Positions 3,139-33,591 of a stretch of 64,000 nucleotides of DNA are shown here, piece after piece. The position numbers and the translations under genes were made by a program. Below the pieces are notes generated by a model. The model searched no databases, was not told where the DNA came from, and saw only the letters and a list, made by a program, of their open reading frames with translations. The DNA comes from Escherichia phage EcNP1. Location of the stretch: sequence record NC_054910.1. One strand, written 5' to 3'. Every line of letters starts with the position of its first letter. Positions within the stretch are counted from its first letter, which is position 1.

Positions 3139-3519
3139 TCACTTAGTCAAATTTTTTACACATGAATTATAAGAATTTACTACATACTCCATCGGAGCAT
3201 TTTTACCAGTACGCCATTGGTAATTATTAGCCCAATTTGCCCAAAGTTCAGCACAGTAGTTTTCAATTTTTTCTTCACGCGTAATCACATCTGAATTACG
3301 ATATGCTTGAGCAGATTCATCTGGACGAATAGCTTCGTCAAAATTCGCCTGCATTTGTTCTACTGTCTGTTTTGGAGCCTCTTTATAACACTTGACGTTA
3401 GGATTATAAAATTTGCTTGAACAGTTTACAATTTTTCCTACATCAGACTGATTTACTACTGGTCCTTGAGCTACACAACCAGTAAGACCCAATGCAATAA
3501 CCAAAATAGCGATTTTCAT
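3139..3519 (-). CDS. Predicted lipoprotein (lipobox LTGC)
   Basis: Internal start MKIAILVIALGLTGC with RBS GGAGAA; ORF-track start at 3708 would overlap gene 43 and the promoter. Confidence 0.7.
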   Translation of the reverse strand: MKIAILVIALGLTGCVAQGPVVNQSDVGKIVNCSSKFYNPNVKCYKEAPKQTVEQMQANFDEAIRPDESAQAYRNSDVITREEKIENYCAELWANWANNYQWRTGKNAPMEYVVNSYNSCVKNLTK

Positions 3520-3547
3520 TTCATTCTCCAAATCCGCATCAGTTGAT

Positions 3548-3585
3548 AGTTGTATAGTACCACAAAGGAACTGGGATGTAAACAG
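3548..3585 (-). promoter_or_regulatory. T4-type early promoter (-35 GTTTACA, -10 TACTAT)
   Basis: Plus-strand tgtaaac at 3577-3583 and tatagtacca block; member of the repeated early-promoter block. Confidence 0.7.
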
Positions 3586-3666
3586 TTTTGTGAAAAATTT
3601 TTTAATGAATTCCAGAGGTCCAGAATCATCTATTTTTCCTAAGTATAGATTTATATTACTTGTATG

Positions 3667-3687
3667 AAAAAGGGACCCGGAGGTCCC
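3667..3687 (-). terminator. Rho-independent terminator after gene 43
   Basis: Minus RNA GGGACCUCCGGGUCCC followed by UUUUU, 14 nt after gene 43 stop. Confidence 0.7.
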
Positions 3688-3700
3688 TAGATTTATTCTA

Positions 3701-6397
3701 TCAGCCAAACAGGAAGTCTAACGAAGCTTTTTCCTCATAGTCCATACCTGCCGATTCACACATGCCCGCAAGCGGTTTAACAAACGATTTTTGGAACAAA
3801 GTTGAGTAGTCAATCCAAGACAGTACATCAGAACGAATTTCTTTTGGAAGTTCTGTGCCCGACGGCCAAGCAATACACTTGTCACCAAATGGATTTCCCT
3901 CACGTAATGGAAGAACCATTACCTTATTTCCATCCAAAATTGGAGCTACACCTAAACCACTAACAGCTCGACGATAAGTTAGTACACCACGAATATGGAA
4001 CGGGCATTTAAACCCTGGCCAACCTTTATCATCATATTTCGCTATATCGTTCGCGGTTTTTACTTCAGCAATAACTTTATAATCAAGTTGACGATATTCT
4101 TTCTCAAAGTTCTTGTAGTATTCTTGGACAGACTCTTCGCCTTCCTGAAGAATACGACGAATACTTTCTTCGAGAGCTTCTTGTACTGCTTTTGGTGTTG
4201 AACTCTGCTGAGTTTCCATACCCATGATTTTTAGATGCGGTTCGGCAAATCGCTTATCTTCCATATCATAAACGTTCAGAGCATAACGTTTTTTCGCTTT
4301 CCAAAATCCACCAACACCCTTTGAACCAAGCGGAGGACAAGAAATAGCTTCACGGTCCATATGCATCAGATGCTCGCGGTTATTCATATAATCGCATAAC
4401 TCACGATATGCAACATCAATCATAGGTTCCATCTTTTTCTTACCGAACTGATTCATGAATTCAACTAAATCATTTTGTTCTTTAAAGCGATCAAGACCTA
4501 CTTTTTCAATAACTTTATCTACACAAACATATACCGAATCAGTATCACCTGCTGCGATGAAATCTTCACCATCAGTTCCACATACTTTATTCAGGTATTC
4601 ATTAATTTTACGAGCAATCCACTGAATACCAACTTGACCAAAAATTGTGATAGCAGTAGCATTTCGCAAATCATAGTAACGGAAATGAATATTACCAAGA
4701 GCACCATAAAGACTGTTGATAAGAATTTTACGGTTCAGCTGATTTGTGTTAGCAAGTGTAGCTGCTTTTTCACATTCTTCGATCAGACTATTAAGAACAG
4801 ATTCGGTGTAATTTGATAGTTCATTTAAGAAATCATCACTGAACTTAACATATCGTTCAACTTCTGGTTTAGTTGAACAAGACCCTGCGCCTTTCATAAT
4901 AATCTTTTTAATAGCTTCGGCATTCATTTCTTCAGCGAACATTTTCTTTTTCCAATCTTTACGCTGGAAAAATACTTTAGCGATTTCCTTTGGAATGATA
5001 CCTTCTTGGTGCTTATCATACATCCATCCATTCGGAGAGCAAGAATATTCATCACTTGGCTTAGGAGCTGTTCCTGCGATATATTCATGAATTGGATGAA
5101 CTTTAAACTGCCCACGAATAGTCTCAGGACTAATGTTAACCTGACGAATAATGCTAGGATACAGAGACGTCAAGTCAAAACTCATAATGTATCGACGAGC
5201 AATCGGTTTAGGTTCAAACACAAATGCACCTGGAAAACTCTGTTTAACGTGCGAACCTTGTTGAGGAATAACCTTATGTTCACCTTTCAGTGAGTTAAAA
5301 ATAATAGCATCCCAAGTTTTAATAGGACTCATTACACCAGAAAAAGGCATTTTAGCGTAATAAGACATACTTAAAACTAGATCGATAAACCCACGAATTT
5401 TATCAATTGCTTGAACTGATTCTACGTCAATAATGTTATAACTAATGTATCGTTGATGATTAGTCTCACGAAGTTTATTAATAGGACCATCGTACGGTAA
5501 TTTACCTTTTTTGGTTTCATGTTGAGCAACTGATTCCAAAGAGAACGATGGCAAATTAGTAAATGCGAATTTCTTGTACAAATCTAAATAATCAAGAATA
5601 GATACGCCATCAATAGAATAAATTTCTTTGCTACCGTACATATTTTGAATTAATTTAGATTTTACTCGACCGATTGGAGAGAAACGTTTCATACTGCGTT
5701 CACCGAGAACCATTTTAACACGATTCATGATATACGGAACGTCAAATCCCTCAATATTCCAACCGGTAAAAATAGCAGGTCGTTTCTGTTCCCAGAGATT
5801 AATATATTCCATGAGCATATCACGCTCATTATCAAATGGCATATAAATTACTCGGTCAAGAATTTCTTGAGGAACTTCATCACCACCTTCACAGTCAAGC
5901 TTAGCAGCTAACTTTGCATCCCATTTTGATACTGAACCGTACATTGAATTCAACAAATCAAAGACGTAAAAACGGTCGTCAATTGAATCATAATGAGTGA
6001 TAGCATCAATTTCATATTCTGCTTTCATTGGGTCAGGAAATTTATCACCAGTAACCTCAATGTCACAGTTAGCTACACGAACAAATTTTCGGTCATAAAC
6101 AATTTCTGAACCATATGTATCACTGATATAAGCGAGTTTAAAATCGTTCATACCAAGAGCTTCGAGACCGATGTCTTCCATTCGTTTCATCCAATCTCGT
6201 GCATCTTTCATTGATGGAAATTTTTGAGGAGCGCAATTTTTACCATAAATGTCTTTGTATTTTGACTCTTCCTTACAATGCCTAAACATAGTCGGAAGAT
6301 ATTCTACTTCACGAGTACGTTCCTTTCCATTTTCATCAATATAACGTTCAACAATATTATTTCCGACTGTTTCGATAGAGATATAAAATTCTTTCAT
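3701..6397 (-). CDS. 43: DNA polymerase
   Basis: 898 aa, same length as T4 gp43; family B polymerase motifs (e.g. YGDTDS); ATG at 6395-6397. Confidence 0.97.
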   Translation of the reverse strand: MKEFYISIETVGNNIVERYIDENGKERTREVEYLPTMFRHCKEESKYKDIYGKNCAPQKFPSMKDARDWMKRMEDIGLEALGMNDFKLAYISDTYGSEIVYDRKFVRVANCDIEVTGDKFPDPMKAEYEIDAITHYDSIDDRFYVFDLLNSMYGSVSKWDAKLAAKLDCEGGDEVPQEILDRVIYMPFDNERDMLMEYINLWEQKRPAIFTGWNIEGFDVPYIMNRVKMVLGERSMKRFSPIGRVKSKLIQNMYGSKEIYSIDGVSILDYLDLYKKFAFTNLPSFSLESVAQHETKKGKLPYDGPINKLRETNHQRYISYNIIDVESVQAIDKIRGFIDLVLSMSYYAKMPFSGVMSPIKTWDAIIFNSLKGEHKVIPQQGSHVKQSFPGAFVFEPKPIARRYIMSFDLTSLYPSIIRQVNISPETIRGQFKVHPIHEYIAGTAPKPSDEYSCSPNGWMYDKHQEGIIPKEIAKVFFQRKDWKKKMFAEEMNAEAIKKIIMKGAGSCSTKPEVERYVKFSDDFLNELSNYTESVLNSLIEECEKAATLANTNQLNRKILINSLYGALGNIHFRYYDLRNATAITIFGQVGIQWIARKINEYLNKVCGTDGEDFIAAGDTDSVYVCVDKVIEKVGLDRFKEQNDLVEFMNQFGKKKMEPMIDVAYRELCDYMNNREHLMHMDREAISCPPLGSKGVGGFWKAKKRYALNVYDMEDKRFAEPHLKIMGMETQQSSTPKAVQEALEESIRRILQEGEESVQEYYKNFEKEYRQLDYKVIAEVKTANDIAKYDDKGWPGFKCPFHIRGVLTYRRAVSGLGVAPILDGNKVMVLPLREGNPFGDKCIAWPSGTELPKEIRSDVLSWIDYSTLFQKSFVKPLAGMCESAGMDYEEKASLDFLFG

Positions 6398-6436
6398 AGA
6401 TATTCCTTAGTTTATAGCCCGAGTTATTAGGCTCTT
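6398..6436 (-). promoter_or_regulatory. Gene 43 translational operator
   Basis: Minus RNA AGAGCCUAAUAACUCGGGCUAUAAACUAAGGAAUAUCUAUG: 5-bp stem, 8-nt loop hairpin next to RBS, matching the T4 gp43 autoregulatory operator as recalled. Confidence 0.7.
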
Positions 6437-6457
6437 GATATATTATACTCCAAATAA

Positions 6458-6471
6458 GGGGCCGAAGCCCC
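6458..6471 (-). other. C(UUCG)G tetraloop hairpin
   Basis: Plus ggggccgaagcccc; minus RNA GGGGCUUCGGCCCC. Confidence 0.7.
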
Positions 6472-6475
6472 TTGC

Positions 6476-6697
6476 TTAAATTAATACCAGCTGTCGGTGA
6501 AAAATTGTTAATCCATCTGCATTAATTGACTTAACTACTGCAGTAAAATGTTTTTGTTCTGGGTGAACTAATTTTTGAAATTCTACCTGAAATTTTAGTT
6601 GGAGGTTTTCTGGTAAATCAAAAAGTGTTTCTGTTGCAGAAAGATTATATTTTTCTTTAAGAGACGCCATGTATTCTTGTGGGGTTATAGCAGTCAT
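6476..6697 (-). CDS. Hypothetical protein between regA and 43
   Basis: ATG directly follows regA TAA stop (translational coupling); 73 aa; start chosen to avoid overlap. Confidence 0.45.
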   Translation of the reverse strand: MTAITPQEYMASLKEKYNLSATETLFDLPENLQLKFQVEFQKLVHPEQKHFTAVVKSINADGLTIFHRQLVLI

Positions 6698-6698
6698 A

Positions 6699-7067
6699 TT
6701 AATTACCAATCGTATATTTAGGAACGAGTTTCCATTCATGTTTTTGCTTAAAAGAAATAACTCGGAAGTTATTAGTTAAGTCTTTCATAAAAGTTCTTTG
6801 ACCGGGAGCGATTTCAATCAGTCCCCAATCTTCTAATAGCCATGCGATTGAATCACGACGAACTTCATCTTCTTCTGTCATTTCAACTTGACGACCATCC
6901 ATACGAAGCATTTCTTTAAAATGGACGATATAGTATAGTCCTTTTTTCTGGAGAATATGACAGGATTGATACAGAACTTTATCTTTATTATTAGCAATTC
7001 CCATGCGAGTCAAGGTTTCTTTAACTTTCAGAAAATCTTCAGGTTTTTTAAGAGTAATTTCAATCAT
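6699..7067 (-). CDS. regA: RegA translational repressor
   Basis: 122 aa, matches T4 RegA as recalled. Confidence 0.95.
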   Translation of the reverse strand: MIEITLKKPEDFLKVKETLTRMGIANNKDKVLYQSCHILQKKGLYYIVHFKEMLRMDGRQVEMTEEDEVRRDSIAWLLEDWGLIEIAPGQRTFMKDLTNNFRVISFKQKHEWKLVPKYTIGN

Positions 7068-29296: not shown

Positions 29297-30265
29297 TTAT
29301 TTCAGAAGAGTAACCTCAGCAATTTCTTCCCAACCGTTTTTGTCGGTCATAATAAAGTCAGCAAGATAAAGAGCAGTACGCAGTGAAACATTGCGTAAAC
29401 GATTAACATTAACTTTCATCCATGATAACGCTTTATAAGTTTCTTCATCCGAAAGACCGCGCTTTTGCATCATGTCAGTTGAAAGAATAACATCTTCAAC
29501 CCTGACCATAATTTCTTCATTAGTGTGAACACCCAAATCCAAATAAACTGAGCGGGACACCAATGCTTGTAAGTGTGGAGCAAGTTTAGTACCACGGTCT
29601 AATTCGCGGTCAATGTCAACGTTTGTGATAAAAACAATCGTTCCTTTAAATTCAAACTCACGGTCAATGCCTTTTTCTTCTAAGTAAGAAGATGCAGTGC
29701 TCCAGCAGACTTTACGGGTCTCTCCAGTGTCCAGAGCAGCTTTTAGAAGATTAAGAATGTCCATATCAGAGAAAACATCCACATCATCAATCAAAAGGAC
29801 AGAATTCTCTTCACGATTATTCCAAAGCTGCTCATAAAGACCAATACCAGAGATTTTACCATTAATGCTTTTATATTCAATGTATCCATTATCATTTGCT
29901 TTATTTAAAGCTTTATCTAAAGAATACGTTTTACCAATACCTGCTGCGCCAGAGATAATCAATGAACGAATATTTCCATTAATAATACCATTCGTCATCA
30001 TTCCCATAACATTAAATCTTTTATTAATGCGGGTTTTCATATCTTCATATGATTCTTTAACTTCTTCAACTTTTACACCATCATATGAAATATCTGATTT
30101 GTAAACCCAAACACCGCGACGTTTACCGTCAATTTCAACAAAAACTTTACCATCTCCTTGTGCATCTACCGGAGCATTATCTGGGAACCATTCGCCTAAG
30201 AGCTCAAAAGTTCCAGAGATTTCTTTACCGAAGTAGATACCCTTATTGATAGTTACAGTTTTCAT
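29297..30265 (-). CDS. P-loop NTPase (Walker A GAAGIGKT, Walker B LLIDDVD)
   Basis: Start set to MKTVTINK (ATG 30263-30265, RBS GGAGAA); motifs read from translation. Confidence 0.8.
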   Translation of the reverse strand: MKTVTINKGIYFGKEISGTFELLGEWFPDNAPVDAQGDGKVFVEIDGKRRGVWVYKSDISYDGVKVEEVKESYEDMKTRINKRFNVMGMMTNGIINGNIRSLIISGAAGIGKTYSLDKALNKANDNGYIEYKSINGKISGIGLYEQLWNNREENSVLLIDDVDVFSDMDILNLLKAALDTGETRKVCWSTASSYLEEKGIDREFEFKGTIVFITNVDIDRELDRGTKLAPHLQALVSRSVYLDLGVHTNEEIMVRVEDVILSTDMMQKRGLSDEETYKALSWMKVNVNRLRNVSLRTALYLADFIMTDKNGWEEIAEVTLLK

Positions 30266-30295
30266 TTTATTCTCCAATTTCACATTTGTTTTGAT

Positions 30296-30333
30296 AGGGT
30301 AATAGTATCACACTACTACCCTACTGTAAACAA
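30296..30333 (-). promoter_or_regulatory. T4-type early promoter
   Basis: Plus gggtaatagtatca...tgtaaac (30325-30331). Confidence 0.65.
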
Positions 30334-30334
30334 T

Positions 30335-30598
30335 TTATTTTAATGTTCGCCAAATTTTTACTGCTTCGCGACGAGATACTTCTACAGCTCCAAGTTCTAC
30401 GGCTTTTTGGCGGCGGCGCGCGTGTAAGTCATAATGTTTAATGCGTTTATCTTGAAACCAAGAGCGTTTCATTCCTATTGCTTCTGCCATTTCATGAAGC
30501 TCTTCAATATCTCCATCAGTGAACATATGACAATTTTTAGTTGGATGACCGCGAAGTTTCCATCCATGATTCATTAAAACATCTACGTAAACTGTCAT
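30335..30598 (-). CDS. Hypothetical protein
   Basis: ORF track 87 aa. Confidence 0.6.
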   Translation of the reverse strand: MTVYVDVLMNHGWKLRGHPTKNCHMFTDGDIEELHEMAEAIGMKRSWFQDKRIKHYDLHARRRQKAVELGAVEVSRREAVKIWRTLK

Positions 30599-30744
30599 TG
30601 ATTCTGCTCCAAATATGTTTCTATAATTTTCTGAGCGAGATAAACTGCGTTATCTTCAGTTGCATCTTCTAAGAAATTTTCAAAACAAGCTGAAATCTCT
30701 TCTGTGTCAATCAACTTTTTTACTTCAATTAACGTAGTTTTCAT
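30595..30744 (-). CDS. Small hypothetical protein
   Basis: Internal start MKTTLIEVKK with RBS GGGGGAA. Confidence 0.5.
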   Translation of the reverse strand: MKTTLIEVKKLIDTEEISACFENFLEDATEDNAVYLAQKIIETYLEQNQ

Positions 30745-30773
30745 TTTATTCCCCCAAATCCACATCAGTTGAT

Positions 30774-30811
30774 AGTTGTATAGTACCATAAAGCTTTATG
30801 CTTGTAAACAA
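30774..30811 (-). promoter_or_regulatory. T4-type early promoter
   Basis: Plus gttgatagttgtatagtacca...tgtaaacaactttgtga (30803-30809). Confidence 0.7.
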
Positions 30812-30832
30812 CTTTGTGACGTCATTTTAAAC

Positions 30833-30856
30833 AAAAAAGGGAGCCCGAAGGCTCCC
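30833..30856 (-). terminator. Rho-independent terminator (UUCG hairpin)
   Basis: Minus RNA GGGAGCCUUCGGGCUCCC followed by UUUUUU, just after 30859 stop. Confidence 0.75.
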
Positions 30857-30858
30857 TA

Positions 30859-31872
30859 TCATTTATAATAACTTCGGTGGTTTTCAAGATATACCTCTTC
30901 AACGAACTTGTCCCAGAACTTCATGTCTACCTTATCAGGCATACCGTTCTTAGCTGCCTGGATGGCTAGGACTTCAACCAAATCAACAGTATCTTCAAGA
31001 AGTTCTTGAACTTCTTTAAATGGTAATTCACCGGCTTTAATCAGCTTAATGATAGAGGCTTCGCGCAATGGGAACGCCAAATCACCTGTTTGGTAGATTT
31101 CCATCAATTGATACCCTGCGCGATAAGCATGACTCAGAGCTTTCCAGTCAATACCTTCATTAGCTTCAGCCTTACGAGCACGTTCACCATATTCCGCATC
31201 GAGCTTATTCAGAGATTGCTTGAGCTCGATTAAAGACAAGGTGGTTTGGTACTTACGTCCAAGAACAGTATAGAACGTTTGAGGACCTGTTTTCTCGTGG
31301 TTATGGAATACCCATTCACAGAACTCGTTTTCAGGAAGCCGATGTTTAATATCTACAATTTTAGTACGACGTTGTCCTTGTGTTCCATCTTCTCGGTAAT
31401 CAACCCACTGATCGGGGATTTGATTAACTACTTTCAATACATTACGCAATGCAGCCAAACGAGAACCCTTAACACCATATTTAGAAGCTTGCTTACGCAC
31501 ATATCCTAAATAGGCTTTCATGTTAGTTGTATAAAACCGTGAACGATTGTCTTGGATAAATTTCCATACATCAGGCAAATCAGATTTAACTACTAGTTCA
31601 GGCGGAGTGTGAAGCATATCCAATGCTACAGTTTCACCGTCTGCTGCTAATTTAAAGAAATACTTAAGACTGTATAGTTCATGGTCAATATCATCTTTAG
31701 TGTTTTTAGATGATGTGTTGTTAGTGTTTTTACTCATATGCTCTTTAACATTTCCGATAAGAATATCGCGAGCAGGAGGAACAAAGATTTCTTTAAAATC
31801 TACATCAGATTCTGGAGTAGAAGTTCCATAAAGATGACTACCAAAATAGCTTTTCATTACTGTTTTCATCAT
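30859..31872 (-). CDS. Nucleotidyltransferase-fold protein (GS-x10-DVD motif)
   Basis: 337 aa; N-terminal YFGSHLYGTSTPESDVDF resembles Pol-beta-type NTase signature. Confidence 0.78.
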   Translation of the reverse strand: MMKTVMKSYFGSHLYGTSTPESDVDFKEIFVPPARDILIGNVKEHMSKNTNNTSSKNTKDDIDHELYSLKYFFKLAADGETVALDMLHTPPELVVKSDLPDVWKFIQDNRSRFYTTNMKAYLGYVRKQASKYGVKGSRLAALRNVLKVVNQIPDQWVDYREDGTQGQRRTKIVDIKHRLPENEFCEWVFHNHEKTGPQTFYTVLGRKYQTTLSLIELKQSLNKLDAEYGERARKAEANEGIDWKALSHAYRAGYQLMEIYQTGDLAFPLREASIIKLIKAGELPFKEVQELLEDTVDLVEVLAIQAAKNGMPDKVDMKFWDKFVEEVYLENHRSYYK

Positions 31873-32342
31873 TCAGCCTTATATTCAATAACAGGACATA
31901 CTTTAGCTTTACGAGCTTTTAAAAATTCGACGATAATAGATTTCTTGGGTTGAATAGGAGGTAAACCTTTATACGCCCTATCAATATTTTCTACATGTAA
32001 AGCATAATCCTTTTTCCATTTATAATCTTTATATTTTTCATGCAATTGTGCAGGAATAACAAATGAACCGATAATAAGTAAAACAAGCAAAATGGCAAGT
32101 ATAAATGCTGCTGGAATAAGAGTCCATAAACTACCAAAAATAAGCCATTTCTGTATGATTTCTGCACAGATGATAGTTAGACCTGCGAGTATAGTACATC
32201 CGAAAAAAGAAACGAAAAATGTAGGAATAACAATAGACCAAAAATACGCGCATAGTGTCTTAGGCCGTTTCCATTCATCATTAAACATTTTGAATAATTT
32301 ATAGTGCCAAGAGCTTTCATTAATAATCATAATTATAATCAT
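31869..32342 (-). CDS. Membrane protein (multiple TM helices)
   Basis: ORF track 157 aa, strongly hydrophobic. Confidence 0.65.
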   Translation of the reverse strand: MIIIMIINESSWHYKLFKMFNDEWKRPKTLCAYFWSIVIPTFFVSFFGCTILAGLTIICAEIIQKWLIFGSLWTLIPAAFILAILLVLLIIGSFVIPAQLHEKYKDYKWKKDYALHVENIDRAYKGLPPIQPKKSIIVEFLKARKAKVCPVIEYKAE

Positions 32343-32860
32343 CCTTTCATTGAAGGTGTAACAGTTGTTAAATACTTAATCATAGCTTCAGCTTCTGATT
32401 TTGATAATGAAATTTCTCCATTGTTTTGACGAATAGAAATAAAATCTGGATGACGGTCACCACCAGCTTTCAAAACACACATATAAGTATCAGTTTCATC
32501 TTCAATATTTGAAATGATTGAAGCAGTTCCACATGAATGCGGTTTTTGATAAATCAATACGGCTTTTCTTCCACCGTTTGACTGTTCATAAACTTTTAAC
32601 ACATCAAACAAATCACTTCTTTTATCAATAGCTAAGATGTTGTTTTCATCTTCAATGTTAAATCCTTCGGATACTTCATAAAGTGTCACCCATAAATCAC
32701 CTATATCGATAGTAGCATTTTCCTTTCCATGACTTTCAAGAGTATGACAAATTTTCTTGATTTCGTCATAACTCATTTTAATAATATCATCTCCTTGAAT
32801 AAGGAAGATGTCATTTTTAAATTCAACACGAATTAAACCACTTTCACTTGAAATAAACAT
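32339..32860 (-). CDS. Hypothetical protein (paralog of 32867..33424)
   Basis: ORF track 173 aa; C-terminal similarity to neighbor. Confidence 0.68.
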   Translation of the reverse strand: MFISSESGLIRVEFKNDIFLIQGDDIIKMSYDEIKKICHTLESHGKENATIDIGDLWVTLYEVSEGFNIEDENNILAIDKRSDLFDVLKVYEQSNGGRKAVLIYQKPHSCGTASIISNIEDETDTYMCVLKAGGDRHPDFISIRQNNGEISLSKSEAEAMIKYLTTVTPSMKG

Positions 32861-32866
32861 ATTTCC

Positions 32867-33424
32867 TCACTTTGAAATCATAGTTGGAATGACAGAATCA
32901 AGATAAGTCTTTAGCGCAATAGCTTCGTCTTTGGTAAATGTGACAATATGTGATCGAAAATCGTCAATTTGACGAATAGTTAAGACATCTCCCTCTTCAT
33001 AACATTTTGATACATTTAAAACAGTTTCATAATTTTGATTACAAGCGTTAGTAATAATAGCATTGCAATTTTTAAACCATTTTAAACCATGTTTTCTTTC
33101 ATTAGAATAATAGAAATATTTAATCTTAGCTATAAAATTATCCCAATTATTAATTGATAAGCATATTGACTCGCTTTCAATATTAAATCCTGGGCATAAA
33201 GAATAAAAATGAATTTTATGCTCATCATTAATGCTTACAATTTTATCAGTGTAAGGTTTTTCAATTTGGGTTAAATGAATAATTTCGCTAGGCGTAAAAT
33301 ATAGCATATCGTCTTCTTGCGTCAAACGATACATATTATTTACTTTTTCTATAGCCAATTCACCAAAAAGTGAACTAACTTCTAGTACTAATCGTTTCAT
33401 ATTGATTCTCTTCGACTCACTCAC
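32867..33424 (-). CDS. Hypothetical protein (paralog of 32339..32860)
   Basis: ORF track 185 aa. Confidence 0.68.
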   Translation of the reverse strand: MSESKRINMKRLVLEVSSLFGELAIEKVNNMYRLTQEDDMLYFTPSEIIHLTQIEKPYTDKIVSINDEHKIHFYSLCPGFNIESESICLSINNWDNFIAKIKYFYYSNERKHGLKWFKNCNAIITNACNQNYETVLNVSKCYEEGDVLTIRQIDDFRSHIVTFTKDEAIALKTYLDSVIPTMISK

Positions 33425-33555
33425 AATTACATACTCCTTTGAATAATATCAATAATGTTGTTCACCAGATTATAAGTAAACATTGGGTAATTATATTGAA
33501 TCATCACATACACAACAAACAAAACTTTCATTCTCTTCTCCTTGGCAGTTGGCAA

Positions 33556-33591
33556 GATTACTATACCATAACCTTGCCAACTTGTAAACCG
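33556..33591 (-). promoter_or_regulatory. T4-type early promoter
   Basis: Plus ttactatacca...tgtaaac (33583-33589). Confidence 0.6.

Follow-up and report, generated by a model that had tools for sequence, protein, structure and literature searches.

The window analysed here comprises 64,000 nucleotides of Escherichia phage EcNP1 (sequence record NC_054910.1). On its minus strand lies an orthologue of the T4 gene nrdC.11, preceded in the direction of transcription by a gene for a small membrane protein; both open reading frames were found where the original prediction, made from the bare sequence, had placed them (see Table 1). The nrdC.11 product is very probably an active nucleotidyltransferase of the RlaP family, and with moderate confidence it is proposed, by analogy to bacterial RlaP, to patch damaged RNA 3' ends for repair by the phage enzymes Pnkp and RNA ligase 1 (Rnl1). 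The identity of the gene, its annotation and its assignment to RlaP were already known, and no new kind of element is present at the locus. What the window adds is a corrected transcription map of the nrdC.11 region, together with evidence that links the NrdC.11 subfamily, beyond canonical RlaP, to RNA ligases.

Family, conserved motifs and predicted structure of NrdC.11

NrdC.11 comprises 337 residues if translated from the first ATG and 336 residues from the second ATG (31869), the start used by most databases. The 337-residue protein matches the Pfam family PF10127 (RlaP, 'RNA repair pathway DNA polymerase beta family') with 50.1 bits at a cutoff of 23 (E=3.8e-13). This match spans only residues 7–136, corresponding to profile positions 23–143 of 249. 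PHROG 388 ('nucleotidyltransferase') covers the protein in full length (E=6e-132), while NCBIfam gave nothing above cutoff. A sequence search of the PDB with NrdC.11 and with a profile of 48 relatives found no relative, PfRlaP being evidently absent from the set searched. The T4 orthologue (NP_049709.1) shares 86% of its amino acids over all 337 residues and carries the RefSeq product name 'nucleotidyltransferase'. Together with the published assignment to PF10127/RlaP (PMC12776372), this makes the earlier description of the function as unknown out of date. In a HMMER search of the full library, 3,523 representatives (50% clusters) were found at E≤1e-3 and 871 at E≤1e-30; among the matches listed, the best-scoring ones are nearly all full length. 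By tblastn, nrdC.11 is present in 1,516 phage records. The label 'thioredoxin' on products of nrdC.1 to nrdC.11 in Nami, Killian, MLF4 and many GenBank records is an error propagated from the locus name nrdC, and one GenBank record that labels the nucleotidyltransferase 'HNH homing endonuclease' is likewise mistaken.

Conservation was assessed in an alignment of 48 diverse relatives with 34–52% identity to NrdC.11 (numbering of the 337-residue form), all of which also pass the PF10127 threshold. Invariant residues are G11, G16, S22, D23, D25, N57, Y124, Y132, R231, D242, K244, H248, R251 and P268, and at least 90% conservation is found for S12, D61, D63, D85, K131, K135 and G136. The N-terminal GS-x10-DVD motif singled out by the original prediction, which lies within the segment YFGSHLYGTSTPESDVDF, is thus borne out as a genuine Pol-β nucleotidyltransferase signature: its catalytic aspartates are conserved throughout the relatives, and the predicted fold is that of a Pol-β nucleotidyltransferase. 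Two downstream acidic motifs, DDIDHE and ALDMLH, provide candidates for the third catalytic carboxylate. A further motif in the C-terminal half, GIDWKALSHAYR, is specific to the subfamily, and its invariant Asp, Lys, His and Arg residues are presumed to contact the nucleoside triphosphate (NTP) or RNA.

The AlphaFold2 model, calculated on the alignment of relatives, reached a mean predicted local distance difference test score (pLDDT) of 93.6 and a predicted template modelling score (pTM) of 0.80. An N-terminal α/β nucleotidyltransferase core is followed by a long helix (residues 118–149), a poorly conserved β-rich insertion (about residues 154–208) and a C-terminal domain of five helices. The helices of this domain (residues 213–335) carry the subfamily-specific motif, which can be written as DWKAxSHAxR. 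All significant structural neighbours of the model are Pol-β nucleotidyltransferases with helical C-terminal domains. In the BFVD it matches many 'nucleotidyltransferases' of phages and giant viruses. Against the PDB, Foldseek returned only weak matches at the superfamily level. HalB is the best structural match.

Among the structural neighbours are KNTase/ANT(4'), LinB, AadA and complexes of MNT with HEPN proteins. MNT antitoxins AMPylate HEPN toxins, and enzymes of the KNTase/Lnu type modify small molecules. NrdC.11 might accordingly nucleotidylate a target other than RNA, either a host toxin or other protein, as MNT does, or a small molecule. The argument for such a target comes solely from superfamily-level fold similarity of the model, to which a weak NCBIfam match to MntA over the GS...D segment can be added. 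However, this match (NF047752) stays at 15.9 bits, below the cutoff of 60, and covers 18 residues only, and KNTase, ANT(4') and related antibiotic nucleotidyltransferases, which act on small molecules, share about 9–10% identity with NrdC.11 and give no match among family hidden Markov models. Moreover, bacterial RlaP left the proteins and DNA of E. coli unmodified (PMC12776372). Nucleotidylation of a protein or small molecule is therefore regarded as improbable.

The RlaP family owes its name to gene neighbourhoods that contain RNA ligases or other RNA-repair genes. RlaP itself has been characterized from Pseudomonas fluorescens and P. aeruginosa (Carruthers, Fatma & Huang 2025; PMC12776372, a December 2025 preprint). 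The enzymes of both species label RNA, neither DNA nor protein, by adding one or two nucleoside monophosphates (or deoxynucleoside monophosphates) to 3'-OH ends. They prefer Mn2+, act preferentially on the 5' half when offered a mimic of cleaved tRNA, and partly restore the aminoacylation of a tRNA that misses a nucleotide. Ribosomal RNA, full-length tRNA and tRNA fragments are labelled with little NTP specificity. The same study proposed RlaP to be an antidote against 'smart' ribotoxins like RloC, which first cut and then trim their target, noted that a 3'-OH product is well matched to 5'-phosphate ligases, and assigned T4 NrdC.11 to PF10127 as part of a separate cluster 5 of the similarity network. 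Earlier comparative genomics by Aravind's group had predicted that phage RlaP puts back, ahead of ligation, the nucleotides that RloC has taken out (PMC7824862).

NrdC.11 shares with the Pseudomonas enzymes the GS and DxD motifs and the downstream acidic residues of the core and, in part of the family, links to RNA-repair genes. In the crystal structure of PfRlaP, the N-terminal nucleotidyltransferase domain is joined to a C-terminal helical domain whose last helix packs back on it and so forms the substrate cleft; the helical C-terminal domain of the NrdC.11 model may be its counterpart. In contrast to RlaP, it is about 70–90 residues longer, contains the β-rich insertion and has a C-terminal half that can not be aligned. 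For comparison, 15 canonical short RlaP proteins from bacterial loci were used, which are about 265 residues long and match PF10127 over the full model with 246 bits. Profile-profile alignment with hhalign superimposed only the nucleotidyltransferase core, i.e. residues 9–101 of NrdC.11 on residues 40–125 of the short form (probability 77%, E=2e-5). Within this core, DDiD is paired with the invariant LDxNGWD (D82) and D85 with the invariant E104 of canonical RlaP. No alignment was obtained past residue ~101, and the C-terminal region of the model is all-helical. Since both the Pfam match and the profile-profile alignment cover the N-terminal part only, NrdC.11 is assigned by sequence comparison to a divergent long-form branch of the RlaP family, in agreement with its published place in cluster 5.

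Gene neighbourhoods of the NrdC.11 subfamily

Gene neighbourhoods were compared for 79 viral and 80 cellular loci with full-length relatives, in which open reading frames were called and neighbours clustered within a range of 6 kb. RNA-repair genes lie within this range in 7 of the 47 distant viral loci (less than 57% identity of the nucleotidyltransferase). At three of these 47 loci, a gene combining an HD domain with a P-loop kinase, a gene for a T4-type RNA ligase (PF09511) and the nucleotidyltransferase gene follow each other on one strand, the ligase gene ending 15 nucleotides upstream of the nucleotidyltransferase. A compact putative RNA-repair cassette of this kind, in which a fusion of HD phosphohydrolase and P-loop kinase precedes a T4-type RNA ligase 1 and the NrdC.11-like nucleotidyltransferase, is seen on the uncultured viral contigs L077, L080 and L081 (~3372–6900). 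RtcB is encoded at a distance of 1.5–3.4 kb in three of the 47 loci. In addition, a small HD-domain gene on the strand of the nucleotidyltransferase is located immediately downstream in four distant viral loci and 0.8 kb off in a fifth. RNA-repair neighbours were also found at 10 of the 80 cellular loci, with RtcB at seven, Ro60/TROVE at four and an Rnl1-type ligase at one. The linkage to RNA ligases thus applies to the NrdC.11 subfamily itself, beyond canonical RlaP.

In cells, the long form often stands beside canonical RlaP and not in its place. A gene for the short form lies within 6 kb of the long form in 19 of the 80 cellular loci, and in 17 of them it follows just downstream on the same strand, with gaps of 0–256 nucleotides. 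The 19 loci include L088, L091, L093, L105, L106, L108, L116, L118, L131, L140, L142, L144, L150, L157, L158 and L161; some of the pairs sit behind RtcB and Ro60. In L142 the order is RtcB, long form and short RlaP, separated by 5 and 9 nucleotides.

Co-occurrence with a distinct short form would suit a role of NrdC.11 at RNA 3' termini other than those of broken tRNAs, for example restoration of the CCA end of phage or host tRNA, or tailing of mRNA or small RNA during host takeover. The broad RNA range and low NTP specificity of bacterial RlaP and the position of nrdC.11 in an early-type transcription unit are in line with this. However, Pfam (E≤0.1) shows no match of the CCA-adding or PolyA_pol type, only RlaP and a sub-threshold NTP_transf_2, and what adjoins the gene at distant loci encodes ligases, end-healing enzymes and Ro60 and does not belong to tRNA maturation. 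Such a role is considered rather unlikely.

Transcription unit and upstream membrane protein

Over positions 30000–33500 the window shows 100% identity with Escherichia phage vB_EcoM_Nami (MZ502380.1; Straboviridae, Tequatrovirus), and several hundred T-even-type genomes align to this segment with 80–99% identity. All genes of the region around nrdC.11 are located on the minus strand. The mobD.2-like gene, mobD.1, a second y05I-like paralogue, the membrane gene and nrdC.11 follow each other with gaps of 0–6 nucleotides or 4-nucleotide overlaps (Table 1). Both y05I/MobD.1 paralogues of this unit (32339–33424), which stand in tandem, match Pfam T4_y05I_N and T4_y05I_C, annotated as 'putative transcription factor'. 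Rfam detects no RNA family within 28–36 kb.

Table 1. Coordinates of nrdC.11, its conserved motifs and the adjoining features in the window.
Feature	Position	Strand	Basis and remarks
mobD.2-like open reading frame, 34 residues	33427..33531	-	Shine-Dalgarno sequence present; opens the unit; placed as mobD.2 is in T4
Early-type promoter motif GTTTAC-18-TATAGT with TG	33560..33589	-	nearest upstream candidate for the whole unit; motif only
mobD.1 orthologue, y05I-like, 185 residues	32867..33424	-	Pfam; 86% amino acid identity to T4 mobD.1
Second y05I-like paralogue, 173 residues	32339..32860	-	Pfam T4_y05I_N/C; stop overlaps start of membrane gene; absent from T4
Membrane protein, 157 residues (153 from 32330), PHROG 944	31869..32342	-	upstream of nrdC.11; ATGA overlap
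nrdC.11 orthologue, RlaP-family (PF10127) Pol-β-fold nucleotidyltransferase (337 residues)	30859..31872	-	open reading frame, Pfam, PHROG, AlphaFold2
Pol-β nucleotidyltransferase signature YFGSHLYGTSTPESDVDF (G11-S12 ... D23-x-D25)	31795..31848	-	translation and alignment of 48 relatives
Acidic motifs DDIDHE (residues 60–65) and ALDMLH (residues 83–88)	31609..31695	-	at least 90% conserved; candidate third catalytic carboxylate
C-terminal motif GIDWKALSHAYR	31120..31155	-	alignment; subfamily-specific, invariant D/K/H/R; helix 242–261 of the model
Intrinsic terminator GGGAGCC-UUCG-GGCUCCC + U6	30830..30857	-	two bases past the nrdC.11 stop codon; ends the unit
Early-type promoter motif	30780..30809	-	just past the terminator; belongs to the next unit (small open reading frame and DUF4031)

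Both clear early-type motifs of the region follow the pattern GTTTAC, 18 nucleotides ending in TGG, and TAnnnT. The original prediction had credited nrdC.11 with an early promoter of its own. However, a motif scan of the coding strand from the nucleotidyltransferase start to 33560 revealed no T4-early, MotA-box or late motif, and the nearest upstream motif precedes four other genes. Consistent with this, the annotators of phage JB75 also placed a promoter in the far intergenic region upstream of the unit. The motif at 30809–30780 was probably mistaken for the private promoter. A sigma-70-like match within the membrane gene (32098–32071, 10 of 12 positions) was rejected as such a promoter, because matches of this kind occur with similar frequency in shuffled sequences (44 found against 31.6 ± 5.4 expected) and because it lacks the GTTTAC and extended TG features.

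The predicted terminator, by contrast, held up as a strong rho-independent hairpin at 30857–30838. Its 8-bp stem contains six G-C pairs and is closed by a UUCG loop and followed by a U6 tail; the fold has an energy of -18.3 kcal/mol (z=-3.8), and none of 200 shuffled sequences folded as well. In phage JB75 the same terminator had been marked independently by another annotator. By its sequence features, nrdC.11 thus stands last in an early-type transcription unit closed by a strong terminator. Further downstream, a mini-unit missing from T4 (30278–30809) comprises the second promoter motif, a small open reading frame of 50/64 residues (30595–30789) and a gene for an 87-residue DUF4031 protein (30335–30598). 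The subsequent gene for NrdC.10 (29297–30283, minus strand), a P-loop ATPase of PHROG 1250 with weak, sub-threshold AAA/STAND-NTPase matches, is found downstream of nrdC.11 in 26 T4-like loci; here it belongs to a separate transcription unit.

As in T4, nrdC.11 is located between nrdC.10 and the mobD region and is followed by the same promoter-terminator junction. In T4, however, the HNH homing endonuclease gene mobD lies directly upstream, whereas here this place is taken by the membrane gene and the second y05I paralogue, and the DUF4031 gene with its small open reading frame is an additional insertion downstream. The exchanged segment (31874–32841, 970 bp) corresponds to the mobD slot of T4 and marks a replacement hotspot that adjoins nrdC.11. 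Compared with T4 (locus L002, 11313–12450), nrdC.11 is 83% identical in nucleotides and 86% in amino acids, while the flanking genes are closer, with nucleotide identities of 96% for nrdC.10 and 90% for mobD.1. Beyond the phages of the Nami/EcNP1 type, the closest nrdC.11 alleles are of the Bp7/Dhakavirus type (90% amino acid identity). Sequence comparison points to a mosaic, recombined gene.

The membrane gene, which the original prediction had put after the nucleotidyltransferase gene, precedes it in the direction of transcription. Its TGA stop codon overlaps the ATG of nrdC.11, and an AAGG sequence is situated a few bases upstream; because of this arrangement nrdC.11 is predicted to be translationally coupled to the membrane gene. 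The protein is strongly hydrophobic, as had been stated, but the term 'polytopic' was loose. Hydrophobic stretches span about residues 30–60 and 66–99, preceded by a basic N-terminal segment and followed by a very basic C-terminal tail (14 Lys/Arg). Judged by hydropathy and by the positive-inside rule, the protein would form a hairpin of two transmembrane helices with both ends in the cytoplasm, or possibly have three transmembrane helices. An AlphaFold prediction gave one implausibly long helix (pTM 0.31). The family comprises 68 clusters (90% identity), all from T-even-like phages, and has no Pfam domain; its profile found nothing meaningful in the PDB, the best match being SecG with E=0.24. 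His13, Cys31, Tyr33, Lys147 and Cys149, all of which flank the hydrophobic core, are invariant in 27 diverse members and could form a cytoplasmic metal or redox site. Locus L052 carries two copies of the membrane gene, one on each side of the nucleotidyltransferase gene.

A membrane protein gene coupled to a nucleotidyltransferase gene resembles Hailong, a two-gene system of a transmembrane protein and a nucleotidyltransferase in which the membrane channel HalA is gated by oligo-dA made by HalB (PMC13434031, review). By this parallel, NrdC.11 and the membrane protein would form a nucleotide-signalling pair, or NrdC.11 would supply an oligonucleotide that keeps a host channel closed. Besides the ATGA overlap and the rank of HalB as best structural match, the distribution of the genes could be read in this sense: among the 32 enterobacterial T4-like loci (at least 57% identity of the nucleotidyltransferase), 31 have a membrane homologue that precedes nrdC.11 on its strand and directly abuts it in 10. 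However, in the other 21 of the 31 loci one to three unrelated genes (0.4–1.8 kb) separate the pair, and T4, with mobD in the slot, and locus L005 possess nrdC.11 without the membrane gene. Among the viral loci below 57% identity a membrane homologue occurs in only two (52% and 43%), and none was detected in viral relatives below 43% or in any of the 80 cellular loci.

The proteins themselves differ as well. HalB (PDB-ID: 9dbh/9dbj) is a host defence protein of about 217 residues that synthesizes protein-primed oligo-dA. It shares 14% identity with NrdC.11, with no sequence relationship detected, and HalA is unrelated in sequence to the membrane protein of the window; in a profile search of the PDB at E≤10, both HalB and HalA are missing from the matches. 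PADLOC gave no match for the nucleotidyltransferase, the membrane protein, the y05I paralogue or NrdC.10, using a 2023 library that may lack Hailong. Since, moreover, the neighbourhoods of distant relatives indicate RNA ligases, a Hailong-like pair or channel-closing function is judged very unlikely. Conserved linkage was not accepted as a sign of a functional pair: synteny is widespread among T4-like genomes, most lineages have inserts between the two genes, and T4 is devoid of the membrane gene. Most likely the membrane protein is the product of a separate accessory gene that shares only the transcription unit, and thus a dispensable neighbour rather than an obligatory partner of NrdC.11. 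A broader variant is likewise given very little credence, namely that the long NrdC.11 type has a product or target other than that of canonical RlaP and, in T-even phages, may pair with the coupled His/Cys membrane protein, for instance as a Hailong-like or anti-Hailong module.

Proposed role of NrdC.11

RNA repair was discovered in T4, where Pnkp and Rnl1 act against the anticodon nuclease PrrC. This route requires 3'-OH and 5'-phosphate ends. In the favoured reading, NrdC.11 would be a template-independent nucleotidyltransferase that adds nucleotides to RNA ends. Its likely substrates would be tRNA halves that have been cut and then trimmed by a host anticodon nuclease of the RloC type ('wobble-excising'), after which Pnkp and RNA ligase 1 of the phage could reseal the full-length tRNA. 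NrdC.11 would thereby serve as an accessory, conditionally useful counter-defence enzyme. Besides the family assignment and the data on bacterial RlaP, the RNA-repair genes near distant viral and cellular relatives and the presence of Pnkp and Rnl1 in the same phage speak for this reading. In a genome reduction study of T4, phages without the nrdC.11-mobD.3 fragment were viable (PMC9825161). In laboratory hosts T4 can thus do without the gene, which is what a conditional counter-defence function would lead one to expect. The RNA-repair hypothesis for NrdC.11 has already been published and is plausible by analogy to the bacterial enzymes.

Several points weigh against this reading. None of the 32 enterobacterial T4-like loci, to which the phage gene belongs by identity, has RNA-repair genes nearby, and in distant loci such neighbours occur in only ~13–15%. 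The phage does encode Pnkp and Rnl1, but about 80 kb away from nrdC.11. At the genome level, the counts of phage records encoding NrdC.11 and of those encoding Rnl1 nearly coincide in each genus, with 286 and 287 for Klebsiella, 83 and 83 for Shigella, 69 and 69 for Acinetobacter and 56 and 56 for Enterobacter. This favours the proposed role, but the co-occurrence could be explained by common descent. The tandem arrangement of long and short RlaP in cells suggests that both forms have non-redundant activities or act as a heteromer. Furthermore, the C-terminal half of NrdC.11, with its insertion and the DWKAxSHAxR motif, resists alignment to canonical RlaP even profile to profile, so that substrate or product could differ from those of RlaP. 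Finally, the biochemistry stems from the Pseudomonas enzymes, and the activity of phage NrdC.11 is predicted by analogy. Other functions at RNA 3' ends are quite possible in view of this diverged C-terminal half and of the pairing of long and short forms in cells.

If the proposed repair of trimmed RNA ends is correct, NrdC.11 would be a third T4 enzyme that completes the RNA-repair pathway by restoring nucleotides lost to 'trimming' nucleases. It would also explain why the non-essential gene nrdC.11 has been retained in over 1,500 phages with sequenced genomes.

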